A stretch of 32,170 bases of DNA from Methanomassiliicoccaceae archaeon (GCA_016919625.1 JACXTP010000121.1:1-32170), one strand, 5' to 3'; counted from the stretch's first letter, positions 4,136-27,517 are shown. Made by a program: numbers and translations. Notes: generated by a model from the sequence alone, not told the origin.

Positions 4136-4462
4136 ATGGCTATGGACTACGATATCAAGAAGGGGAAGTACTCGGACTTGGAAGGCGAAGGGCTGAAGAA
4201 GATCGTGGCGGAGACCATAGGGAACGCCACGATGGAAGGGGACCTGGTGGTCGCCTCCTTCGGAGCGCTTGATCGAATGGAGACCAAGGTGATCAGCAAG
4301 ACCGCATTGTCCGTGTGCACCAAGATGAAGAAGGATGTCAGCGAGGAAGTGGCCACCGAGACCATAAAGCGCTACAATCAGTTCCTTGAGGCCGCCACCG
4401 GGTTCAACGCCAAGGAAAGGGGCAAGCGGGCGCAGAAGAAGGCGAAGGAAGACAAAGCTTGA
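4136..4462 (+). CDS. Hypothetical small protein (108 aa) with a Lys-rich C-terminal tail
   Basis: Track ORF 9 nt after the preceding stop, preceded by ggaggg. Codon usage resembles its neighbours, and a strong hairpin plus T-tract follows it. I recognised no family by eye. Confidence 0.6.
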   Translation: MAMDYDIKKGKYSDLEGEGLKKIVAETIGNATMEGDLVVASFGALDRMETKVISKTALSVCTKMKKDVSEEVATETIKRYNQFLEAATGFNAKERGKRAQKKAKEDKA

Positions 4463-4481
4463 TAGTGGCCAGATTTGGCCT

Positions 4482-4510
4482 GCCGAGGCTTCCCTCGGCC
4501 TGTTTTTATT
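4482..4510 (+). terminator. Hairpin plus T-tract terminator after the 108-aa ORF
   Basis: The 7-bp stem gccgagg (4482-4488) pairs with cctcggc (4493-4499) around the loop cttc, followed by c-tgttttt-att. A second palindrome, ggcc-agattt-ggcc, lies just upstream (4467-4480). Confidence 0.6.
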
Positions 4511-4540
4511 TATATACCCCTACCACACAGTATAAATATA
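4505..4540 (+). promoter_or_regulatory. Two TATA-like boxes upstream of the ribosomal-protein cluster (tttatttatata 4505-4516; tataaatata 4531-4540)
   Basis: These are the only strongly AT-rich boxes between the terminator and rpl3. They would give a leader of roughly 185-210 nt before the ATG at 4748. Confidence 0.45.
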
Positions 4541-4747
4541 AGTATCCTTATGCGAGGTTGCTCAACGCGATAAGGACGTTCGACCAGACTCCTTGGGCAA
4601 TGCGCGAGCAACCCTTAACCGCCAACCGATTAAGTTCTGGGGGGCGACATCAGAGTCACGGTCGAAGGTGCGGATCTCAACACTCGTGAGAATGGGCGTT
4701 AGCAAGAACAGAGAGTTTGCTCTCTCGGCAAGCAGAGAGGGAGACAT

Positions 4748-5749
4748 ATGCCGAACAAAAGACGTCCGCGACAGGGCTCCATGGCGTTTTCGCCAAGAAA
4801 GAGAGCTTCGAGACAAACACCTAAAATGGACCACTGGCCCGAGATCAGCGAAGGCCCGAAGGTCCAGGGATTTGCCGGCTACAAGGCCGGCATGACGCAC
4901 GCTATGATGGTCGATTACCGCAAGTCCAGCACCACTGCTGGCCAGGAGATCAAGATCCCGGTCACAGTGCTGGAGGTCCCGCCTATGAAGGTGGCCGCGG
5001 TGCGACTGTACGAGAACACCCGCTACGGCCTGAGGACCGCTGGAGAGGTCTGGGCCGCTAGCATCGACGAGACGCTGTCCCGCCGCCTGCCCATACCCAA
5101 GAACTACGACCAGGGCAAGGCTTGGGAGAAAGTGAAGGAGGTCGATGTGGAGGATATCCGCATCCTCGCCTACACCCAGCCCAAGATGGTGAAGGGCGTC
5201 CCGAAGAAGGTCCCCGAGCTCATGGAGCTCCGCATTGGGGGCGGCACCATGGATGCGCGCATGGAGTATGCGAAGGGCATCCTGGGCAAGGACATTGGCA
5301 TCGCCGACTTCGCCAAAGAGGGCGCGTTGATCGATGTGTCCGCTGTCACCAACGGAAAAGGCTTCCAGGGCGCCGTGAAACGCTGGGGCCTGAAGCTTCT
5401 ACACCACAAGAACAGCAAGCATCGCCGCATGGTCGGTACCTTGGCCCCGAAGAGGCCTGGTTACGTCCGTGAGACCGTGCCCCAGGCCGGTCAGATGGGC
5501 TACCACCAGAGGACCGAGGTCAACAAGCGCATACTCAAGATCGGTGAGAAGGGTGAGGAGATCAACCCGAAAGGCGGCTTCGTCCTGTATGGACTGGTCA
5601 ACAACCCATATGTTCTGCTGCACGGCTCCGTGCCCGGCCCGACCAAGAGACTGGTCCGGCTGAGGGACCCGGTACGTAAGCAGGGCGTGGACCTGAAGGA
5701 GGCGCCAAGTATGACGTACGTCTCCGTGGAATCTAAGCAGGGGGCGTAA
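4748..5749 (+). CDS. rpl3: 50S ribosomal protein uL3
   Basis: 333-aa ORF starting MPNKRRPRQGSMAFSPRKRA, with FAGYKAGMTH and GKGFQGAVKRWG. It is the first gene of the conserved archaeal cluster. Confidence 0.97.
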   Translation: MPNKRRPRQGSMAFSPRKRASRQTPKMDHWPEISEGPKVQGFAGYKAGMTHAMMVDYRKSSTTAGQEIKIPVTVLEVPPMKVAAVRLYENTRYGLRTAGEVWAASIDETLSRRLPIPKNYDQGKAWEKVKEVDVEDIRILAYTQPKMVKGVPKKVPELMELRIGGGTMDARMEYAKGILGKDIGIADFAKEGALIDVSAVTNGKGFQGAVKRWGLKLLHHKNSKHRRMVGTLAPKRPGYVRETVPQAGQMGYHQRTEVNKRILKIGEKGEEINPKGGFVLYGLVNNPYVLLHGSVPGPTKRLVRLRDPVRKQGVDLKEAPSMTYVSVESKQGA

Positions 5750-7531: not shown

Positions 7532-7993
7532 ATGGCTGAAGATAAGCTCACCGGAACGAAGTCCTCCCGCAGGAAGCAGCGCAAGAAGAAGACGCTGATC
7601 ACTGGTCGCAGGAAGAAGGAGTTCACCTACCGCGGTTTCACCATGGAGCAGTTGCAGGAGATGCCCTTCGAGGAGGTCCTGGAGCTGATGCCCAGCCGCA
7701 TCAGGAGGACATTCGTTCGCGGGTTCAATGAGGAACAGAAGACCGCCTTCGACAAGATCAAGTCCGGGGAACATGACGTGGTGCGCACGCACCGCAGGGA
7801 CATACCCATCATCCCGGAGTTCGTCGGAAGGAAGGTCGCGGTGTACAACGGCAAGGAGTTCAAGGAGATCGAGATCAGGCCTGAGATGATCGGGCACTAT
7901 CTGGGCGAGTTCAGCATGACCAGGAAATCCGTCAAGCACTCGGGTCCAGGTGTCGGTGCCACACGTTCGTCCAAGTTCCTGCCGCTCAAGTGA
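7532..7993 (+). CDS. rps19: 30S ribosomal protein uS19 (with a ~25-aa Lys/Arg-rich N-terminal extension)
   Basis: 153-aa ORF with KKEFTYRGFTMEQLQEM and GRKVAVYNGKEFKEIEIRPEMIGHYLGEFSMTRK. Confidence 0.95.
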   Translation: MAEDKLTGTKSSRRKQRKKKTLITGRRKKEFTYRGFTMEQLQEMPFEEVLELMPSRIRRTFVRGFNEEQKTAFDKIKSGEHDVVRTHRRDIPIIPEFVGRKVAVYNGKEFKEIEIRPEMIGHYLGEFSMTRKSVKHSGPGVGATRSSKFLPLK

Positions 7994-8004
7994 GGTGTGT
8001 TGCA

Positions 8005-8451
8005 ATGGTTGGATACACAATGGAAGCTGATGCGGACACGACCTCTAGGGCGATAGGGAAGGAGATGCAAATCTCCCCCAAGTTCTCCCGTGAGATCTGT
8101 CGCATGTTGAAGGGCAAGCCCGTCAACGACGCCCTGAAGATGCTGGAGGAAGTGGTCGAGCTTACCCGCCCGGTCCCCATCCGCCGCTACAACATCGGCG
8201 TGGCGCACAAGCAGGGAGTGGGGCCGGGTCGCTACCCGGTGAAGGCCGCCAAGGCCATTCACAAGGTGATCGAGAGCGCTAAGTCCAACGCCGAGTACAA
8301 AGGCTTGGACGCGGACAACATGCGCGTCAAGGTCGTCGCCGCACACCTAGGCCGGACCATAGCTGGCTATATGCCCAGGGCGCACGGACGCAGCACCCCC
8401 TGGAATCAGCAGACCGTGAACATTGAGGTAATCTTGGAGGAGATGAGCTAA
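8005..8451 (+). CDS. rpl22: 50S ribosomal protein uL22
   Basis: The track ORF begins at GTG 7990. The ATG at 8005 lies 8 nt after tgaggtg and gives MVGYTMEADADTTSRAIGKEMQISPKFS. Confidence 0.92.
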   Translation: MVGYTMEADADTTSRAIGKEMQISPKFSREICRMLKGKPVNDALKMLEEVVELTRPVPIRRYNIGVAHKQGVGPGRYPVKAAKAIHKVIESAKSNAEYKGLDADNMRVKVVAAHLGRTIAGYMPRAHGRSTPWNQQTVNIEVILEEMS

Positions 8452-19476: not shown

Positions 19477-20448
19477 ATGCCAATGCTCATCAGGGATAAG
19501 GCCCCCCGGACCTCCGGGAGGGGAAAGGCACCGGAGGAACGCTCCATCGAAGAGCTGCTCCAGGCTGGTGTATTGGTCCTGGACAAGATGCAGGGGCCGA
19601 CGTCGCATCAGGCCACCGCTTGGGTGCGGGATGTCCTGAAGGTGGACCGGATCGGTCACGGCGGCACCCTCGACCCGAACGTGAGCGGCGTACTGCCTAT
19701 CGCGCTCGGCCGCGCCACCCGACTGACGGACCTGGTGCTCCGTTCCGACAAGCAATACGTCTGTCATATGAAGCTGCACCGCGACCGTCCCGAGGCCAAG
19801 GTGCGCGAGGTCTTAGGCACGTTCGTGGGCGACATCTATCAAGTGCCACCGGTGCGTGCCGCCGTGAAGAGGCAGATGCGTGTCCGTAGGGTCCGCTCCA
19901 TTGATATCCTTGAGATGGGGGGGCGAGAAGTGCTCTTCCGTGTCGATTGCGACGCTGGGACCTACATCCGTACCCTCTGTGTCGACGTCGGCGAGGCTTT
20001 GGGCGTGGGGGCCAACATGGCAGCTCTGCGCCGTACCCGCTCCGGCTCCATGGTGGAGGACCAGGCGATCACATTGCAAGACCTCACCGACGCGGTGGTG
20101 CGATGGAAGGAAGGTGACCCGACCTGGCTTCGCTCCATGCTCATTCCGATGGAAGTATTGCTGGAACCTCTTCCCCACATCATATTGAAGGACAGCGCCG
20201 TGGACGCGGTGTGCCACGGGGCGGACCTGGCCTGCCCCGGGGTGGTGGAGCTCGACGAAAGCATCGCCAAGGGAGCCACCGTGGCCATGATGACGCTCAA
20301 GGGGGAGGCGATCGGTCTGGGCATAGCGGCGGCAGCTGCGGTGGACTTATTGAAGGCCACCGATGGGCTGGCAGTACGCACCCAGCGGGTATTGATGCCC
20401 CCAGGGACCTATGCCAAGGGCTGGACCCTCAGGCAGAGGCCGGCCTGA
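19477..20448 (+). CDS. cbf5: tRNA/rRNA pseudouridine synthase Cbf5 (TruB family, H/ACA RNP catalytic subunit) with a C-terminal PUA domain
   Basis: ATG at 19477, one nt after the cmk stop. It has GPTSHQATAWVRDVLKVDRIGHGGTLDPNVSGVLPIALG (the catalytic Asp motif) and a PUA-like C-terminus. Confidence 0.92.
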   Translation: MPMLIRDKAPRTSGRGKAPEERSIEELLQAGVLVLDKMQGPTSHQATAWVRDVLKVDRIGHGGTLDPNVSGVLPIALGRATRLTDLVLRSDKQYVCHMKLHRDRPEAKVREVLGTFVGDIYQVPPVRAAVKRQMRVRRVRSIDILEMGGREVLFRVDCDAGTYIRTLCVDVGEALGVGANMAALRRTRSGSMVEDQAITLQDLTDAVVRWKEGDPTWLRSMLIPMEVLLEPLPHIILKDSAVDAVCHGADLACPGVVELDESIAKGATVAMMTLKGEAIGLGIAAAAAVDLLKATDGLAVRTQRVLMPPGTYAKGWTLRQRPA

Positions 20449-20866
20449 GATCGTTGTACGTTGCAGCTAGCGGGATGAAGGCCAGGACCAGAACTGCGAT
20501 GTTGACCAGCACGTTGATGGTCACGCCATGATACGCAGAGAACCCGGTGTCGATGGCGAACCAGGCCAGAACGCCGAACGCGATCGCCCGCCAGGACCAC
20601 GGCTCTTTTTTAGCAAAGGGCCCACGGACCACGAAGTACAGCACGATGCCCCATCCCACCATGGTCGCCCCCCAAACTCCGTACGCCCAGGCCTGGAAGT
20701 CCTTCTCCGCCTCGGTAAGGCCATCTTCGAAGAAGGCGTCGTCGATAGGGCCAGAGAGCGCAGAGAAAACATCCATGCCGATGAGGAATGCCATGAACAG
20801 GCCGAGGGCGATGACGAGTACGCATACCCCTTTCAGCCACCTTTGCCAGAATTGGAATGAGGGCAT
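20429..20866 (-). CDS. Hypothetical integral membrane protein (about 4 TM segments)
   Basis: 145-aa ORF with clear hydrophobic helices (VCVLVIALGLFMAFLIGM, WGATMVGWGIVLYFVV, AIAFGVLAWFAI, INVLVNIAVLVLAFIPLA). It lies 37 nt downstream of the MBL gene on the same strand and overlaps the cbf5 3' end by 20 nt (convergent). Confidence 0.65.
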   Translation of the reverse strand: MPSFQFWQRWLKGVCVLVIALGLFMAFLIGMDVFSALSGPIDDAFFEDGLTEAEKDFQAWAYGVWGATMVGWGIVLYFVVRGPFAKKEPWSWRAIAFGVLAWFAIDTGFSAYHGVTINVLVNIAVLVLAFIPLAATYNDLRPASA

Positions 20867-20903: not shown

Positions 20904-21947
20904 TCAATAGTTCAGGAGGCATTGCTGCCCAGCGCTGGGGACCGGACAGGCATCGATGCCCAGCTTCTGGCGTATCTCCCCTGCCAGTTCCGAGGCGTAC
21001 CCATGCCCCACATACACCATTCGGGGCGAGCATGCCTTCACAAAGGCCAACAGCTCGTCGTGGTCCGCATGGTCAGAGATGGCGAACTGCTCGTCCACAT
21101 ATCCCCGCTTGTTCCCGTTCGCCGCCCAGCCGCTCACGCTCGCCTTGCGGAATCGTCGCCCCTTACGGTTCGCCGACATGATCTCCTGCGTCATGCTCTG
21201 ACCATGGGCGCCGATGAGCACTCCCGGCGTGCTGACGTCCCCTGGCTCGTGCTCCTTGATCTCCAGGTCCAGACCGCAACGTTGCAGCAGCCGGCTGCTC
21301 TCGGAGATGGTCCCATGCACCCGGGGCTCAAGGTCGCGCAGGGCATGGATCAGCTCGTGCGTCTTGCCCAGGTTTGAAGAGGTGAAGAGAGCGACGGAGA
21401 ATCCCTGGGACAGCGAATCCTCGATCCAGTCCGTCATGACCTTGAAGATGCGCTCGGTGGGAGGGAAGACGTACTGGGGCTTGCCGAAGGTGGCCTCGGT
21501 CAGCAGCACGTCCACCTTGACCGGGCGAGCGCCCTGGATGCGGAACCGGTCCCTCGGGGAGAAGTCACCGGTGTAAAGCACCCTCTGCCCCTCGACGTCC
21601 ATCTCGAACATCACCGATCCGGTCACATGGCCAGCGTCGTGTAGTCGCACCTTGTCACAATGCTCTGCTTCGATGGCCCGGCCCTTGATCTCGGAGATGA
21701 AGCGCCTAGTGAACTCGGATGACACGATCCGATTAGGCCCCTTGCGCTCGAAGGTGCTGGGGATGTGGTCGGAATGGGCGTGGGAGGTGCAACAGACCGT
21801 CCCCTGCGGGACCTTCTTGGTGGATAGGCTGCGCGGGTCGAGATGGAAGCTGATGCCAGCGCCGCTCACCTCGATGCCGTTGCCGCACCTGACGCTGAGC
21901 GCACCCCCTTCCATGTCCGAACCTATACGAGGGCGAATATAGAACAT
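20904..21947 (-). CDS. Short metallo-beta-lactamase-fold / beta-CASP nuclease with no KH or other N-terminal RNA-binding domains
   Basis: 347-aa ORF with the motifs SHAHSDH (HxHxDH), DAGHVTGS, YTGDFS, LLTEATFG, ISDHADHDELLAFV and VYVGHGY. The C-terminal ASGW...ISDHADxxEL...HG layout resembles bacterial ligase-associated DNA-damage-response exonucleases. M12 (21914) is an alternative start. Confidence 0.75.
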   Translation of the reverse strand: MFYIRPRIGSDMEGGALSVRCGNGIEVSGAGISFHLDPRSLSTKKVPQGTVCCTSHAHSDHIPSTFERKGPNRIVSSEFTRRFISEIKGRAIEAEHCDKVRLHDAGHVTGSVMFEMDVEGQRVLYTGDFSPRDRFRIQGARPVKVDVLLTEATFGKPQYVFPPTERIFKVMTDWIEDSLSQGFSVALFTSSNLGKTHELIHALRDLEPRVHGTISESSRLLQRCGLDLEIKEHEPGDVSTPGVLIGAHGQSMTQEIMSANRKGRRFRKASVSGWAANGNKRGYVDEQFAISDHADHDELLAFVKACSPRMVYVGHGYASELAGEIRQKLGIDACPVPSAGQQCLLNY

Positions 21948-22012
21948 TTATCCTGGCATCATCGCAACTTTTAGATGCTGGCTCACTTTCGGGAAACCCC
22001 CACCTACACCCC

Positions 22013-22020
22013 TTTATACC
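22013..22020 (+). promoter_or_regulatory. TATA-like box TTTATACC upstream of the RadB-like gene
   Basis: It lies ~31 nt before the ATG at 22051. The same 8-mer recurs at 23070-23077 before the 92-aa ORF. Confidence 0.4.
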
Positions 22021-22050
22021 CTCAAGACAAGGCATATCCGGTGAGGGCCG

Positions 22051-22782
22051 ATGGAATACACATACCTAGAGACGGAGGAGCACTCCCGCATCGGACTGGG
22101 CGCCAGTGCCGCCCGGTACCGGTCCCTGGTCACGTCCATACCGCCAGTGGACGCATTGCTGCGCGGATTGGAGCCGGGGACAATCACGTTCATCGATAGC
22201 TCCGACCGGCTGGTCTTCGAGCTGGTCAACCTGTTCTGCTTCAACGCGGTGAACGAGCTGCACGAGGAGGTGCTGTGGATCGACGGAGGGAACTCGGTGA
22301 ACCCGTACGAGCTGAGCGCCATCTGCAAACGCTACCGCGTGCCGCCGGAGGAGGTGCTGCACAACATCACGGTGTCGCGGGCGTTCACCGCCTACCAGAT
22401 GTCCACCCTCATCGAGGACATGCTGGACCCCGAGGTGGACCGCATCCGCACCGGCCTGGTGGTAGTATCCTGCTTCCCTGACCTTTTCCAGGACGCGGAC
22501 ATGAACTGGACCGAGTCGCTGCAGCTGATGCGCCGCGCCATGGAGAAGCTGCGCGCCCTGACCGAGGAGCGGTCGCTCATCACCATCATCACCAACTATG
22601 GCCAGGCCAAGCCCATGTCCCGCAAAGGCCTGCGCTCCCTTTTGTATGACAGTGCGGACCGCGTGGTCCGCATCGACGGCAAGGGGGTGTCGGTACGCAT
22701 CACCCTGCCCAAGGAGGGGGAGGGCATGCTCTACCGGCCAGTGGTGCGCAACCAGACCACCCTGGACGAGTTCCGGGCATGA
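22051..22782 (+). CDS. RadB/RadA-core (RecA-superfamily) paralog lacking Walker A and Walker B motifs
   Basis: 243-aa ORF preceded by ggtgaggg. It is collinear by eye with RadB: IPPVDALLRGLEPGTITFI (compare LD.LLGGGI..G.ITEI), LWIDGGNSVNPYEL (compare VYIDTEGTFRPERL), EVLHNITVSRAFTAYQ (compare EVLDNI.VARAYN..HQ), GLVVVSCFPDLF (compare LIVVDSLTALYR) and SLITIITNYG (compare .VVVTNQV). Where GxxGxGKT should sit it reads DSSDRLVFE, and no GK[ST] occurs anywhere in the protein. Confidence 0.7.
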   Translation: MEYTYLETEEHSRIGLGASAARYRSLVTSIPPVDALLRGLEPGTITFIDSSDRLVFELVNLFCFNAVNELHEEVLWIDGGNSVNPYELSAICKRYRVPPEEVLHNITVSRAFTAYQMSTLIEDMLDPEVDRIRTGLVVVSCFPDLFQDADMNWTESLQLMRRAMEKLRALTEERSLITIITNYGQAKPMSRKGLRSLLYDSADRVVRIDGKGVSVRITLPKEGEGMLYRPVVRNQTTLDEFRA

Positions 22783-22829
22783 TGGTGGGCCTTGCTTCCC
22801 CCCATTAGGTAGAGTCTAGGCATTGCCAT

Positions 22830-22878
22830 CGTTCTGTTGTGGAACGTTATTATTCATAAATTGTTCTGTCATAGAACG
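22830..22878. repeat. Two copies of a palindromic motif GTTCTGT-N4-GAACG with centres 32 bp apart
   Basis: cGTTCtgttgtgGAACg occupies 22830-22846 and tGTTCtgtcataGAACg occupies 22862-22878. AT-rich sequence (ttattattcataaatt) lies between them. Confidence 0.6.
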
Positions 22879-23068
22879 ATTTTAGACCGTTTTCATTTTT
22901 TGATCGTCATATGTTTACACCCTGGGTGCAAAGGTCCGACAATTTTTTTAAAAAGGGTTCCGGGTCACAGTCCCTTGGGACCCTCAGAACAATATGTGGT
23001 CTCGGCTGAGCCCACACCGTCCTCTTTCGATAGGTGACCTCACTTTCGGCCGACCCTCCCGGTTCGGG

Positions 23069-23077
23069 TTTTATACC
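23069..23077 (+). promoter_or_regulatory. TATA-like box (ttTTTATACC) upstream of the 92-aa ORF / polymerase pair
   Basis: The box lies 15-23 nt before the ATG at 23092 and ~30-38 nt before the ATG at 23107. This would fit a leaderless or very short-leader mRNA. Confidence 0.4.
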
Positions 23078-23091
23078 GTCCTACAGGTCGA

Positions 23092-23370
23092 ATGAACGGT
23101 GAGAGAATGGGACGGACCGTACCCACCTATCGCATGACGGCGGAGATGATGATCGACAGCTGGAAGGACTACCGACGGGCGCTGCCCCAGGAGGACCGTG
23201 AGGTCTTCGACCGTATGGTGAACCGCATACGCATGCACGCCTCCGCCTCCACCTACGCCATATTCAACGACCCCTTTGAAGGGGCGGTCCTCTCCATGCT
23301 CCTGGAGCAGGAGAAGGAGCTCGACAAGCTGAGACGGGAGGCGGCCGGCCATGCGGGGCTGGATCGTTGA
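23092..23370 (+). CDS. Hypothetical 92-aa protein (predicted helical); its 3' end overlaps the polymerase start by 20 nt
   Basis: Track ORF. An alternative start at 23107 is preceded by ggtgag, the SD-like motif used elsewhere in the window. I recognised no family by eye. Confidence 0.55.
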   Translation: MNGERMGRTVPTYRMTAEMMIDSWKDYRRALPQEDREVFDRMVNRIRMHASASTYAIFNDPFEGAVLSMLLEQEKELDKLRREAAGHAGLDR

Positions 23371-25513
23371 TTGCTATGCCGACCCCGCCCAGGACGCCAT
23401 GGTCACCTGGCTGCGGACCAACTCCGGGGTGGAGCGCCTGGAGGACCGGCGCTTCCGCCCCGCCTTCTACGTCTGGGCGCCGCAACACCGCCTCGCCGAG
23501 CTGAAGACCTCCATGCGCATGCTCGGCACCGCCGAGGTCTCCGAGGAGCGGCGGCGCATCTGGCTGGGGGAGAGGGAGCGCGAGGTGCTGCGGGTGGTGC
23601 CGTCCTCCTACGACCAGCTCACCCCCTTGGCCCGCACCGTGGACCGCTGGGGGCTGTACCGCGACTACAAGCTCTTCAACGTGGACTTCCGCATGGAGCA
23701 CCGCTACTTCATGGCCCACGACATCTTCCCCATGGGGCTGCTGGAGTACGACGGGCGCTTCCATCATCTTGACACCCCCTACCGCCTGGACTACGCCCTC
23801 CCCGACCTGCGCGTGTGCCGCCTCGGCCTCAAGGTGGAGGCCAGGCAGCGCATACCCACGATGGAGGACCGGTTGCTCTCCGCGCACCTAAACGATACGG
23901 TACTGGAGGGCGAGGAGGCGGCGGTGCTGGAGGACCTGGACCGCACCCTGCGCCGGATGGACCCGGACGTGGTGGTGACCGACGGCGGCGACGCGTTCTA
24001 TCTGGACTACCTGCAGGCTCGGGCCGACCTTCATAGCATCCCGGTGGAGCTGGGGCGGGACCAGGGCATGCGCCAGGCCAAGGGCAAGAGCTACTTCACC
24101 TACGGCCGCATCGTGTACAAGGCCCCGGCGCACAAGTTGCGCGGGCGCATCCACATCGACTCCGCCGGCTCATTCATGTTCGACGAGTCCGGGCTGCATG
24201 GCGTCATCGACCTGTCGCGGCTGTCCCGCATCCCGGTGCAGGAGATGTCCCGCCTGTCGCCGGGCACCGCCATCAGCTCCATGCAGGTGAACGAGGCCCT
24301 GCGCATGGGCACCCTGGTGCTGTGGAAGAAGAACCTGCCCGAGGACTTCAAGACCGCGGGGGACCTGCTCGTCTCTGACCGGGGCGGCTTCATCTACGAG
24401 CCCAAGGTGGGGCTGCACGAGAACGTCTCCGAGGTGGACTTCGCGTCGCTCTACCCGAGCATCATGGTGGTGCACAACATCTCCCCGGAGACGCTGCGCT
24501 GCGGCTGCTGTCCTGATTCCCGCCGCATCGTGCCGGAGATCGGCTACCCCATCTGCGAGAAGCGGGAGGGGCTGCTGCCGCGCGTGCTGCGCCCCATCAT
24601 CAAACGCCGCCTGGCGTTGAAGCGGTTGGCCAAGGAGGGCGGCCGCCACGCCGATGCCTACAAGGCCCGGGCCAAGGCCCTCAAGTGGGTCCTCGTCACG
24701 TGCTTCGGCTATACCGGCTACCGCAACGCCCGCTTCGGCCGCATCGAGTGCCACGAGGCCATCAACGCCTACGGTCGGGAGATCATGCTGCAGACCGCGG
24801 AGATGGCGGAGGCGCGCGGCTTCCGCATCCTGCACGGCATAGTGGACTCGCTGTGGCTGGAAGGTGACGGCGACGGCGCGGCCTTCTGCTCCGATGTCAC
24901 CAGGAGGATAGGCATACCGCTGCAGCTGGAGGGCGTGTACCGCTGGATAGTCTTCCTGCCCAACGTCAGCACCGGCGTGGGCGCCCTGAACCGTTACTAT
25001 GGCCTCTTCTCGGACGGGGAGATGAAGCTGCGCGGCATCGCCGTGAGGCGGGGCGACACCACCGGTCTGGTGAAACGCCTGCAGGGTGAGCTGCTGGAAG
25101 GCATGGCACGCTGCGTCGACGGCAGGGCGTTCCTGGAGAACGTCCCCGTGGCGCTGGCGACGACACGCCGCTTCGTGGAGGAGGTGCGTTCGGGCGCGGT
25201 CCCGCTGGACCAAATGATCATAACCAAGCGCGTATCGCGAGAGGTGGAGGAGTACAGCGACCGCAAGAACGAGTCGCTGGACGCGCTCAAGCAGCTCAAG
25301 GCGGCCGGTTTCCGTGTCCCGCCGGGGGAGATGATCGAGTACGTGGTCCTGGCCAAGGACCGCCGCACCAAACCGGCACAGTTCCTCGATGGCGACGAGG
25401 CCTACGATGAGGGCAAGTACGTGGACCTGGTGCTGCGGGCCACGAGCGAACTGCTCGCCCCCTTCGGCTACGACCTGGAGCGGATGCGGGCCGAGGTGGC
25501 TAGGCCAGGATGA
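23351..25513 (+). CDS. Family-B DNA polymerase homolog (PolB2-like) with degenerate 3'-5' exonuclease motifs and non-canonical motifs B and C
   Basis: 720-aa ORF. It has an archaeal PolB-type N-terminus (RFRPAFYVWAP) and an intact motif A (VDFASLYPSIM, aa 362-372). The motif B position reads KWVLVTCFGY, the motif C position reads HGIVDS, and the KxY-region analogue reads NRYYGLFSDGEMKLRGIAVRRGDT. Confidence 0.85.
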   Translation: MRGWIVDCYADPAQDAMVTWLRTNSGVERLEDRRFRPAFYVWAPQHRLAELKTSMRMLGTAEVSEERRRIWLGEREREVLRVVPSSYDQLTPLARTVDRWGLYRDYKLFNVDFRMEHRYFMAHDIFPMGLLEYDGRFHHLDTPYRLDYALPDLRVCRLGLKVEARQRIPTMEDRLLSAHLNDTVLEGEEAAVLEDLDRTLRRMDPDVVVTDGGDAFYLDYLQARADLHSIPVELGRDQGMRQAKGKSYFTYGRIVYKAPAHKLRGRIHIDSAGSFMFDESGLHGVIDLSRLSRIPVQEMSRLSPGTAISSMQVNEALRMGTLVLWKKNLPEDFKTAGDLLVSDRGGFIYEPKVGLHENVSEVDFASLYPSIMVVHNISPETLRCGCCPDSRRIVPEIGYPICEKREGLLPRVLRPIIKRRLALKRLAKEGGRHADAYKARAKALKWVLVTCFGYTGYRNARFGRIECHEAINAYGREIMLQTAEMAEARGFRILHGIVDSLWLEGDGDGAAFCSDVTRRIGIPLQLEGVYRWIVFLPNVSTGVGALNRYYGLFSDGEMKLRGIAVRRGDTTGLVKRLQGELLEGMARCVDGRAFLENVPVALATTRRFVEEVRSGAVPLDQMIITKRVSREVEEYSDRKNESLDALKQLKAAGFRVPPGEMIEYVVLAKDRRTKPAQFLDGDEAYDEGKYVDLVLRATSELLAPFGYDLERMRAEVARPG

Positions 25514-25850
25514 GGAGGGCGCATACCGGCAGGCTGATATGCCCCATCGCATGGGCCGCTCTCGGGCGTTCGAGCTTGGCCAGGTTCAGCTTCCTCAGTA
25601 AAGGGTCGCGGGGGTGCATGGGCTCGCCCCGAAGGAGGTCGAGGGCCAGGTGGGAAAGGCAGGCGGCGAGGGCCATCGTCGGGAAGTGGCCGAGAAAGGG
25701 GACGAATGCCGAGGCGGCCACGAGGGGCAGCAGCGCTAGGGGGAGGTAGCTGGAGTGGAGCATCCTCTCGTGGGCCTGGTCGGGGGAGAGGAGTGAGTCC
25801 AGGTCGAGCAGTAGAGAGACGAAGGCTGAGGTCAAGGCCATCGGCCCCAT
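25500..25850 (-). CDS. DUF457/YdjM-like membrane-bound metal-dependent hydrolase homolog; start codon unresolved
   Basis: Coordinates run from the first in-frame ATG. The family-like N-terminal segment VTPYHASVAFALGGS lies upstream of that ATG (25851-25916). Together with LLLDLDSLL...HERMLHSS it matches the H...PDxD...HR..HS pattern. This is the only ORF here that ends in TAG. Confidence 0.4.
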   Translation of the reverse strand: MGPMALTSAFVSLLLDLDSLLSPDQAHERMLHSSYLPLALLPLVAASAFVPFLGHFPTMALAACLSHLALDLLRGEPMHPRDPLLRKLNLAKLERPRAAHAMGHISLPVCALLILA

Positions 25851-25918
25851 GGACCCGTCCAGAAGGAGTAGGGAGCCGCCTAGCGCGAAAGCTACCGAGG
25901 CGTGGTAGGGGGTGACGC

Positions 25919-27517
25919 TCAGGGCATCAGCCCCAGGACGGTCTCGATCACGGGGCGCCAGCCATTGGTGGACAGGATTATGGGGAGGAGGAGGCAACCC
26001 GTGAGACAGACCCGGCTCACGCCGAGAGCAGGTGGCAAGGACCCGACCAGGGTGGCCACCGTCAGGACGATAAGTCCTGCGGGACCGCACAGGATGGCGC
26101 AAAGCGCGATGGTAAGGACCAGAATGGCCCGGGAGAGCCGTCCCCCGGAACTTCCGGATGACCTCCTGGCCACGATGGCCCCGACCTTGACCGTGAGGAC
26201 GAAAGCTAACAGAGAGGATATCAGCACGGACAGCAGCAACAGGGTGAGGTGGGCCGAGGTTGGTCGGGCCATGGCCTCGAGGGCGTCGTTACCGAGCATG
26301 CTCTCCACCACCATCAGGGCCCCGGTGCCTCCTTGCCCCGTGGAAGCCAATGCGAGAACGCCGAAGACCATGGAGGCTGTGCCGACGGCGGCGCTCAGGA
26401 CGATGAAACGTTCCGCGCTGGCCTCATCGTCCCGCTCGGTATCGCCGCAGATCATGGAGGCAGGGACGGTGGCGGATGTGGAGGTGATGCCAGGCACCAG
26501 GCCGGCCAGTAGGCCGGACAGGGAACCGCTCAGCACCACGTGGGACTCCATGCGGACCGGCCCTGGGTCCTGCTGCTCCGGGACCGGGCGGCCATCTTGG
26601 GAGGCCAGGAGCGAAGGCACCCCGAAGAGACCGGTGAGGAGGGGGAACATCATGTTGCCGTCGACCCCCGACCATGCGAGGTCAGGTAGATGCCCCCAGA
26701 GCACCGAGACCCCCAACAGACCGGAGAGGGCGACCACCCCGCAGGCCATGGCCATTGGGGCCCAGCGCTTACGGGTCAGTACCCATTGACCTTGCAGGGC
26801 GATATGCCCTCTAGGCAACCGACCCTTGAACTTGGCAGCGTATGTGCCTTGGGCGGTCTCGATCCGGTACCTTGACCAATGGCGCCGGGCCCGACCATGC
26901 AGGATGGCCTCCGCCCCCTTCATGGGCCGCGCCGGCAATATGGATGTCCTGGCCTCCTGGGAAAAGGACTTGCCCAAGAAAAGGGCCCTGACCTCGCGGT
27001 CCTGTCTCTGGCTTAGAACCAAAAGGAGCAGGACGAGCAAAAGGAGCCCTGGAATGTAAGCGTCAAGCCGGTCCAATGGCCCGGAGCCGCTCTGGAAGAA
27101 CAGGAGGAGCGGGACCGAGAGCAAAAGGGCTACCACGGCCCCGCAGAGGGAGCCACCGGCAGCTAGTCGCACGGCGAGAAGGCCCTTGCCTGCCATAAGG
27201 AGACGGTGCCCCGGCAGCACCGAGAGGCAGTCCTCCTCATCGGGCACGCCGATGAACACAGAAGGGATGAAGTCCAAAAAGCTGTGTGTCACCGCAGCGG
27301 ACACGATGACGCAGGAGAGAATCAGGGGGACGACCAAGGGATCCAGTTCGAGCTCCTCACATATGGGCTCAAGCAGTGATGACAGGCTAGGATAGCTGAT
27401 AAGGATCAGTAAGGCCATGGTGTTGACGTGGATGCCTGGGACCAGACCAGTGAAAGTACCGAGGGCGGTCCCGGCGAGCATTCCGCAAATGGCAATGAGG
27501 ACGACCACACCATCCAT
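25919..27517 (-). CDS. TctA/DUF112-family polytopic membrane protein (COG1784-like) with a ~80-aa basic central insert
   Basis: 532-aa ORF. It shows an internally duplicated signature (GLVPGIHVN at aa 24-32, GLVPGITST at aa 339-347) and many TM helices. A soluble Arg/Lys-rich segment spans aa ~170-252. Confidence 0.7.
   Translation of the reverse strand: MDGVVVLIAICGMLAGTALGTFTGLVPGIHVNTMALLILISYPSLSSLLEPICEELELDPLVVPLILSCVIVSAAVTHSFLDFIPSVFIGVPDEEDCLSVLPGHRLLMAGKGLLAVRLAAGGSLCGAVVALLLSVPLLLFFQSGSGPLDRLDAYIPGLLLLVLLLLVLSQRQDREVRALFLGKSFSQEARTSILPARPMKGAEAILHGRARRHWSRYRIETAQGTYAAKFKGRLPRGHIALQGQWVLTRKRWAPMAMACGVVALSGLLGVSVLWGHLPDLAWSGVDGNMMFPLLTGLFGVPSLLASQDGRPVPEQQDPGPVRMESHVVLSGSLSGLLAGLVPGITSTSATVPASMICGDTERDDEASAERFIVLSAAVGTASMVFGVLALASTGQGGTGALMVVESMLGNDALEAMARPTSAHLTLLLLSVLISSLLAFVLTVKVGAIVARRSSGSSGGRLSRAILVLTIALCAILCGPAGLIVLTVATLVGSLPPALGVSRVCLTGCLLLPIILSTNGWRPVIETVLGLMP

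Follow-up and report, generated by a model that had tools for sequence, protein, structure and literature searches.

A probable type-1a PolB2 operon, split by a non-coding spacer, in a Methanomassiliicoccaceae genome

What brings together a beta-CASP nuclease, a RadA-like protein without ATPase motifs, a small helical protein and an aberrant family-B DNA polymerase in one archaeal locus? The four genes lie side by side in a 32,170-nucleotide stretch of Methanomassiliicoccaceae DNA (GCA_016919625.1 JACXTP010000121.1:1-32170), the whole of which we call the window. An initial annotation had read them as a damage-tolerance module, and all four open reading frames (ORFs) were found where it had placed them. 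We conclude that three of the genes (22051-25513) form a canonical archaeal PolB2 operon of type 1a, in the order iRadA-PPB2-PolB2, a reading to which we assign a probability of about 0.88. The nuclease is an independent neighbour, and what may be new at the locus is confined to a promoter box resembling the Sulfolobus DNA-damage-responsive element (DDRE) and to the duplication of this box in a split operon.

A PolB2 operon of a published family

The operon family to which this locus belongs is already published and named, and the locus is an ordinary member of it. Makarova, Krupovic and Koonin (2014) predicted that PolB2 genes share an operon with inactivated genes of the RadA family and with arCOG07300, an alpha-helical protein of about 90 aa whose operon linkage extends across archaea and some bacteria (PMC4104785). 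Timinskas et al. (2025) coined the names iRadA and PPB2, the latter for arCOG07300, and sorted the gene orders, type 1a being iRadA-PPB2-PolB2; they modelled a "PolB2 mutasome", a heteropentamer of PolB2:iRadA:PPB2 at 1:1:3 (PMC11791011). The published diagnostic features are (i) in PPB2, an N-terminal MGRT arm with Arg3 and Arg9; and (ii) in PolB2, a D(K/R) motif and a Rad51-oligomerisation-like motif that binds iRadA, the PIP boxes of the complex being mostly in iRadA (PMC11791011). The supplementary tables of the same study list type-1a Methanomassiliicoccus operons, and a published Thermoplasmata PolB2 has a motif B-to-C segment near-identical to that of the window (PMC11791011). Thus, the earlier statement that no system of this composition had been described does not hold. 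The function proposed at the time, damage tolerance by a specialised PolB without exonuclease activity that works with a pseudo-RadA scaffold and a small accessory subunit, is in essence the published operon model (PMC4104785; PMC11791011).

Is the polymerase, a protein of 720 aa, a PolB2? As a reference, we used a Pyrococcus (Pfu) PolB sequence validated end-to-end against 3a2f_A (1749.5 bits). This canonical enzyme scored only 165 bits against the window protein and aligned over the polymerase domain alone. The alignment confirmed what had been said of the catalytic motifs: motif A is intact, motif B reads KWVLVTCFGY where Pyrococcus has KLLANSFYGY, motif C reads HGIVDS for YIDTDG, and Tyr217 stands in place of the Exo II Asp. 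Exo I was unalignable by program, and its substitution, FDIE to LGLK (D to G and E to K), was seen in a manual alignment only.

These changes had been taken as departures from the family norm. We searched for relatives with HMMER, kept the best 150 representatives of 50%-identity clusters and used the 106 that were full-length (31-52% identity). The first motif-C Asp was absent from every one of them (106/106), IVD being the commonest triplet (62/106), and a His preceded motif C in 103/106. Motif B of the form KW[VIL]LVT[CS]FGY was common to these full-length relatives, and D[KR]GG occurred in 101/106, the DRGG of the window occupying the YxGG position. Ten residues upstream of DRGG, the window protein carries FKTA, which fits an FxxA pattern; in the relatives, the same columns hold an aromatic residue, Leu or Met followed by x-x-Ala in 51 of the 106. 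Thus, what had looked like a departure is the norm of the PolB2 family. Judged by these signatures, shared by all 106 top representatives, the window polymerase groups with PolB2 and not with PolB1 or PolB3. The roles given to the FxxA-type and D(K/R) motifs in iRadA and PPB2-arm binding come from models (PMC11791011).

The PolB2 homologs P0256, P0261, P0300, P0305, P0310, P0318, P0323 and P0331 run to about 1250-1300 aa, and their alignment to the window protein breaks at residue ~453 within motif B, suggesting that inteins are inserted at the classic PolB site.

Could PolB2 instead be catalytically dead, the complex then acting in replication or origin control as a structural or regulatory element? 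This "inactivated PolB" hypothesis was raised together with an arORC2 gene association (PMC4104785), and loss of the first motif-C Asp, the change of NS to VT in motif B and that of Lys to Asn in KxY all speak for it. However, Sulfolobus Dpo2, whose motif C is similar (IID), is as active as the replicase while lacking exonuclease activity; it inserts poorly opposite lesions, efficiently extends mismatched or lesion-opposed termini (PMC8764526) and is required for damage-induced mutagenesis (PMC8764526; PMC11791011). Moreover, motif A, Asp499 and His495 are conserved throughout the family, which would not be expected of a dead enzyme. We therefore consider a dead PolB2 unlikely.

The partner proteins carry the features of iRadA and PPB2. 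iRadA (243 aa) scored 37.4 bits with the Pfam Rad51 model (cutoff 22 bits), over residues 73-189 only, and its matches to RAD51/RadA structures in the PDB reached E = 2.5e-6. When aligned to RAD51, the Walker A sequence GEFRTGKT lies opposite DSSDRL-V and the Walker B Asp opposite a Ser (VVVSCF); the core alignment begins at residue 28 of 243, so that the HhH domain is missing. Hence the loss of Walker A and B noted in the initial annotation stands, but the likeness to RadB does not: RadA, Rad51 and Dmc1 models all outscored RadB, and we rejected RadB orthology for this gene. The protein ends in NQTTLDEFRA, which places the PIP-like QTTLDEF two residues from the C-terminus, and Q-x-x-L-x-x-F/Y was present in the iRadA tail at 14/15 Methanomassiliicoccales loci and at many Thermoplasmatota loci. 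PIP boxes have been described for iRadA and are frequent in the family, not universal (PMC11791011).

The small gene had been annotated as a 92-aa ORF at 23092-23370 that overlaps polB by 20 nt. The ORF and the overlap are there, and a 20-nt overlap was found in the related locus L001 too, but the true start is the second ATG, at 23107, which gives a protein of 87 aa (MGRTVPTYR...). We place the start here because the orthologs all begin at MGRT, because a public protein collection holds the 87-aa form and lacks the 92-aa form, and because a Shine-Dalgarno-like hexamer, GGTGAG, lies at 23098-23103, 3 nt upstream of this ATG. In an alignment of 26 PPB2 homologs, G2, R3 and T4 were nearly invariant and R9 was invariant. 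All of the 120 homologs listed carried PF26485 (DUF8156) in precomputed annotation. An AlphaFold2 model (pLDDT 80) has helices at residues 8-25, 28-50 and 56-85 and a free N-terminal arm; PPB2 has been modelled as a homotrimer (PMC11791011), and its fold has been reported to be like that of a sigma-factor N-terminal domain. PPB2 (23107-23367) and the three orthologs tested (L001, L003 and L004) also gave repeated sub-threshold matches to DUF6809 (E 1e-4 to 0.08), and the two families may be distant kin.

How widely is the gene order kept? We scanned one genome per species with the PolB2 alignment as query, which returned 80 loci from Methanomassiliicoccales, other Thermoplasmatota, Methanoperedens, Hadarchaeota, Bathyarchaeia and several bacterial phyla, the closest being that of a Methanomassiliicoccaceae metagenome-assembled genome (MAG; 96% identity). 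Gene order was scored in six-frame translations with locally built hidden Markov models (HMMs), and loci with enough upstream flank were counted. iRadA, PPB2 and PolB2 followed one another on one strand in 11/11 Methanomassiliicoccales, 36/45 other archaeal and 8/9 bacterial loci, that is, in 55/65 loci from other species. The nuclease was near PolB2 in Methanomassiliicoccales only, with none at 45 loci elsewhere. In the closest relative (L011, PolB2 96% identical), the beta-CASP gene (4200-5241) and the PPB2 gene (7756-8020) are both frameshifted, probably through assembly errors and not as pseudogenes.

In the window, a 324-bp non-coding spacer splits the operon, leaving iRadA alone and PPB2 with PolB2. 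The core of the spacer had no homolog in any fetched locus, and its T-runs are likely archaeal terminators. At the same junction, relatives have a gene overlap (L001), a DUF1059 gene (L003; 6717-7094) or 1.7 kb of DNA (L011; 6080-7643); a tblastn search for a remnant of the L003 DUF1059 gene in the window spacer gave no match. The iRadA-PPB2 junction is a hotspot of variation in which only the promoter copy nearest PPB2 is conserved. Does the locus then belong to an integrated mobile element or provirus with its own family-B polymerase? The variable AT-rich spacer would fit such an origin, as would the resolvase or TnpB gene that adjoins some PolB2 loci elsewhere. However, the chromosomal synteny from the ribosomal cluster to the TctA/ABC genes is stable across the order, no integrase, terminal repeats or tRNA target was found in the window, and the GC content of the locus is not below that of its flanks. 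We regard a mobile origin as extremely improbable.

A DDRE-like box before both transcription units

How might the two halves of a split operon be kept under common control? The 8-mer TTTATACC that the initial annotation had seen before the second and third genes is present at both positions, and it is part of a longer common architecture: CTCACTTTCGG-N20-TTTATACC, followed after 29-30 nt by the ATG, has two matches, where none is expected by chance. Both promoters also read ACTTTCGG-N5-CCC, then 14 nt, then TTTATACC. The pattern ANTTTCR-N5-CYC occurs twice in the 32-kb window, once per promoter. A bacterial-type promoter and terminator scan gave results at chance level, and Rfam had no match over the whole window.

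The element recalls the Sulfolobus DDRE, 5'-ANTTTC-3' with consensus AATAGTTTCRGWDTACTCWS, which is bound by Orc1-2; Sulfolobus dpo2 belongs to the Orc1-2 regulon, and its induction by NQO depends on Orc1-2 (Sun et al., 2018; PMC6061795). As in Sulfolobus, the core of the window box (ACTTTCG/A) is followed five bases on by C-Y-C, with the same bipartite spacing, and the sense strand carries the box shortly before the promoter that serves the PolB2 genes. The position differs: the start of the window box is 28 nt upstream of the TATA box and ~65 nt upstream of the ATG, whereas the Sulfolobus element lies 23-55 nt before the ATG. A further difference is that no Orc1/Cdc6 gene lies in the window.

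Is the box conserved at other PolB2 operons? We counted sense-strand ANTTTCR in the 220 nt upstream of the start of the iRadA HMM match. The 7-mer was present at 14/15 loci in Methanomassiliicoccales, 12/19 in other Thermoplasmatota, 3/3 in Methanoperedens, 2/2 in Hadarchaeota, 1/1 in Halobacteriota and 5/17 in Bathyarchaeia, and upstream of bacterial iRadA at none of nine loci; the antisense control over all loci gave 6/69. The conserved form upstream of iRadA, ACTTTC[AG]-N5-C[CT]C, was found in the window, L001, L003, L011-L037 and further loci, with a TATA-like box usually ~20-24 nt after the 7-mer. The bipartite pattern occurred 3.15 times per kb of target region and 0.019 times per kb of the remaining locus sequence, a ratio biased upward because the pattern was partly derived from the same sequences. 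As an unbiased measure, we scored every position of every locus against the published S. islandicus consensus AATAGTTTCRGWDTACTCWS. The best match of the whole locus fell within the 145-nt target region at 6/59 archaeal loci, where ~0.4 were expected, and a target-region match was among the top ten at 15/59; in bacterial loci, the target region never held the best or a top-ten match. Examples of such matches are AATACTTTCGATATTCTCTT (L028) and TTTACTTTCACTGTACTCTC (L073). Directly upstream of ten other PolB2 operons there was, again, no Orc1/Cdc6 gene; the genes at these places included DUF72, an XPD-type helicase, PHP, resolvase, TnpB and TetR.

We tentatively propose, at odds slightly short of even, that the Sulfolobus Orc1-2 box ANTTTCRG-N4-CTC extends beyond Sulfolobales to the PolB2 operons of Methanomassiliicoccales, other Thermoplasmatota, Methanoperedens, Hadarchaeota and some Bathyarchaeia. 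As part of the same proposal, the box may have been duplicated in this genome when the operon split, so that both units kept it. With the same promoter before each of them, the two units would stay under common regulation, probably by DNA damage. No report of a DDRE-type element outside Sulfolobales was found in the literature searched and, to our knowledge, the regulation of the archaeal damage response is understood in Sulfolobales only. If the proposal is true, the PolB2 operon would be a core member of an ancient, cross-phylum archaeal damage regulon, and the box a counterpart of the SOS box. A conserved Orc1-2-type box before PolB2 operons in several other phyla would make such a shared regulon directly testable.

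The beta-CASP nuclease as a neighbour

Does the nuclease belong with the operon? The protein (347 aa) had been described as a short MBL/beta-CASP nuclease without KH domains, and it is one: Pfam gave an RMMBL match and no KH domain, its alignment with CPSF-73 spans MBL motifs 3-4 and the beta-CASP motifs A-C, and the catalytic motifs HAHSDH, AGH, YTGDF, TEATFG, SDHAD and VGHG can all be read in it. We rejected an aCPSF1/FttA identity, given the missing KH domain, the length (347 aa versus ~630 aa) and a TIGR03675 score of 40 bits against a 580-bit cutoff. The best curated match was to the ligase-associated DNA damage response exonuclease TIGR04122 (1.4e-36, 126 bits against a 325-bit cutoff). 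The likeness to this bacterial exonuclease is that of a ~330-aa-type MBL/beta-CASP protein without extra domains. Membership was rejected, as the score is far under the cutoff and no ligase, Lhr or MPE gene is nearby; cbf5, the conserved partner, adjoins instead, with a 145-aa membrane ORF and iRadA. The protein may be an RNA or DNA 5'-3' nuclease.

The initial annotation had allowed for the nuclease as a fourth member of the module, and a four-gene damage-tolerance module co-regulated from the shared divergent intergenic region has some data behind it. At 9/12 Methanomassiliicoccales loci of the scan and at L001-L004, the nuclease gene lies upstream of iRadA in divergent orientation. Its best curated match is the damage response exonuclease just named, and its start codon in the window is only 35-45 nt away from the DDRE-like box. 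Several observations stand against such a module. In Methanomassiliicoccales, the whole block is syntenic, from ribosomal proteins, SecY, Cmk and Cbf5 to the TctA/ABC transporter, and adjacency alone therefore tells little about a functional link. Even there, the gap between nuclease and iRadA ranges from 26 bp to 4.9 kb and takes up inserted genes, and a nuclease gene that stands ~1 kb away from iRadA lacks a promoter box of its own. Outside the order, at none of the 36 other archaeal and 9 bacterial loci whose upstream flank measured 3 kb or more did a beta-CASP gene lie within 8 kb of PolB2, even at E<=1e-3. Orthologs of the nuclease in other Thermoplasmata (37-39% identity) are convergent with cbf5 and have as their other neighbour a ~950-aa KaiC-like ATPase, with no PolB2 operon near, and the DPANN homologs have neither cbf5 nor PolB2 context. 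The TIGR04122 score, too, falls well short of its cutoff. These context data largely refute the four-gene module, and we hold it to be very unlikely.

The nuclease is an independent gene anchored at the cbf5 end of the ribosomal cluster, a position older than its adjacency to the PolB2 operon; that adjacency is limited to one order. In L026 (30-6338), from a divergent genome of the order, a 2,102-aa ORF takes the place of the beta-CASP/cbf5 block before the PolB2 operon; thus, the linkage of nuclease and PolB2 breaks even inside Methanomassiliicoccales.

Further observations concern the flanking genes. At L005 (489-3347) and L010 (5076-7943), two Thermoplasmata loci outside Methanomassiliicoccales, the gene of the ~950-aa KaiC-like ATPase (PF06745 and DUF7504) ends 30-60 nt before the beta-CASP gene and is read in the same direction, and the pair may form an operon involving a RecA-superfamily ATPase. 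The next gene downstream of beta-CASP, on its strand, is a predicted membrane ORF of ~145 aa without family match, found at 20429-20866 (-) in the window and at 9018-9452 in L003. At the other end of the operon, between PolB2 and TctA, a small gene at 25500-26102 (-) is oriented as TctA is and convergent with PolB2. In relatives (L001 4318-4737, L003 3912-4325) it encodes 137-139 aa, and its 3' end overlaps that of PolB2 by 4 nt. It has a weak match to the YdjM membrane-protein family and may encode a small transporter subunit. The features of the locus are collected in Table 1.

Table 1. Features of the PolB2 locus and its nuclease neighbour, in window coordinates.
Feature	Position	Strand	Basis
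Beta-CASP nuclease, intact catalytic motif set; neighbour of the module, not part of it	20904..21947	-	Pfam, alignment, genomic context
DDRE-like box 1 (ACTTTCGGGAAACCC), 14 nt upstream of the iRadA TATA box	21985..21999	+	Pattern search; conserved in orthologous loci
TATA-like box TTTATACC of iRadA	22013..22020	+	Read from sequence; spacing as at PPB2
Shine-Dalgarno-like GGTGAG of iRadA	22040-22045	+	Read from sequence
iRadA, RadA/Rad51-fold protein without Walker A/B and without N-terminal HhH domain	22051..22782	+	Pfam Rad51; RAD51/RadA alignment
PIP-like C-terminal motif QTTLDEF of iRadA	22753..22773	+	Tail comparison across loci
Variable iRadA-PPB2 spacer, AT-rich core (GC 0.42), T-runs	22783..23038	.	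Sequence and locus comparison
DDRE-like box 2 (ACTTTCGGCCGACCC), duplicate architecture upstream of PPB2-PolB2	23042..23056	+	Pattern search; same box at PPB2 of L003 and L011
TATA-like box TTTATACC of PPB2-PolB2	23070..23077	+	Read from sequence
PPB2 (arCOG07300 / Pfam PF26485 DUF8156), 87 aa	23107..23370	+	Precomputed PF26485 match of identical protein
PolB2, Dpo2-type family-B DNA polymerase, decayed exonuclease site	23351..25513	+	NCBIfam NF004416, 492.8 bits
FKTA (residues 333-336; FxxA, Rad51-oligomerisation-like), then DRGG (343-346; D(K/R) motif)	24347..24388	+	Alignment of relatives
Motif A DFASLYPSIM, intact	24437..24466	+	Comparison with Pyrococcus PolB
Motif B KWVLVTCFGY (canonical NS to VT)	24683..24712	+	Comparison with Pyrococcus PolB
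Motif C LHGIVDSL (first Asp to Ile; near-invariant His495; Asp499 kept)	24830..24853	+	Alignments

Putative mechanism and known systems

How would the products of the operon work? Every sequence determinant of the PolB2 mutasome is present in the window, and we therefore infer that its proteins act alike. The steps that follow are carried over to this organism from Sulfolobus experiments and published AlphaFold models. PolB2 would be an active polymerase without proofreading that extends primer ends opposite lesions or mismatches in translesion synthesis. A PPB2 trimer would dock on PolB2, with one MGRT N-terminal arm inserted between PolB2 and iRadA. iRadA, lacking ATPase motifs, would act as a scaffold to which PolB2 binds through its FxxA-type motif, mimicking Rad51 oligomerisation, and the C-terminal QTTLDEF of iRadA would bring the complex to PCNA.

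Several points weigh against reading the locus as a type-1a PolB2 operon that encodes such a complex. Membership of PPB2 in its family rests on the precomputed PF26485 match, the motif and the gene context; local Pfam and NCBIfam libraries, the Pfam copy being without PF26485, gave no significant match for it, the sub-threshold ones being DUF6809, DUF922 and DUF6694. Foldseek, run with the PPB2 monomer model against the PDB, returned no match with E below 2.6, and the published sigma-factor-like fold was not reproduced. The VT that replaces NS in motif B and the KxY that reads LNRY differ from canonical polymerases. An active PolB2 is presumed here by analogy, the biochemistry of PolB2 being that of Sulfolobales only, and the PolB2:iRadA:PPB2 complex is likewise adopted from published models. 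Finally, with a spacer that carries T-runs, iRadA may be expressed apart from PPB2-PolB2.

As it stands, the locus is one further instance of a described operon and changes little in the general picture. Its uses are nevertheless practical: (i) the start of the small gene moves to the MGRT codon at 23107; (ii) the beta-CASP nuclease should not be annotated within the module; and (iii) the locus offers a natural split-operon variant with a duplicated promoter.

Among known systems, the closest is the PolB2 operon and mutasome itself (Makarova 2014; Timinskas 2025; Feng 2020, 2022), with which the window shares the same three families in type-1a order. In PolB2, the likeness extends to a motif C that lacks its first Asp after a His, to D(K/R)GG and to an FxxA-like motif; in the partners, it extends to the MGRT arm of PPB2 and to a P-loop-less RadA core with a C-terminal PIP box. 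The window differs in its 324-bp non-coding spacer and duplicated promoter, and in coming from an uncultured Methanomassiliicoccaceae MAG. A more distant parallel is the E. coli Pol V mutasome (UmuD'2C-RecA), in which a translesion polymerase likewise works together with small accessory subunits and a protein of the RecA family, the system being inducible by damage. In contrast to PolB2, Pol V is a Y-family polymerase that works with active RecA from a filament, and the resemblance is one of analogy, not homology.

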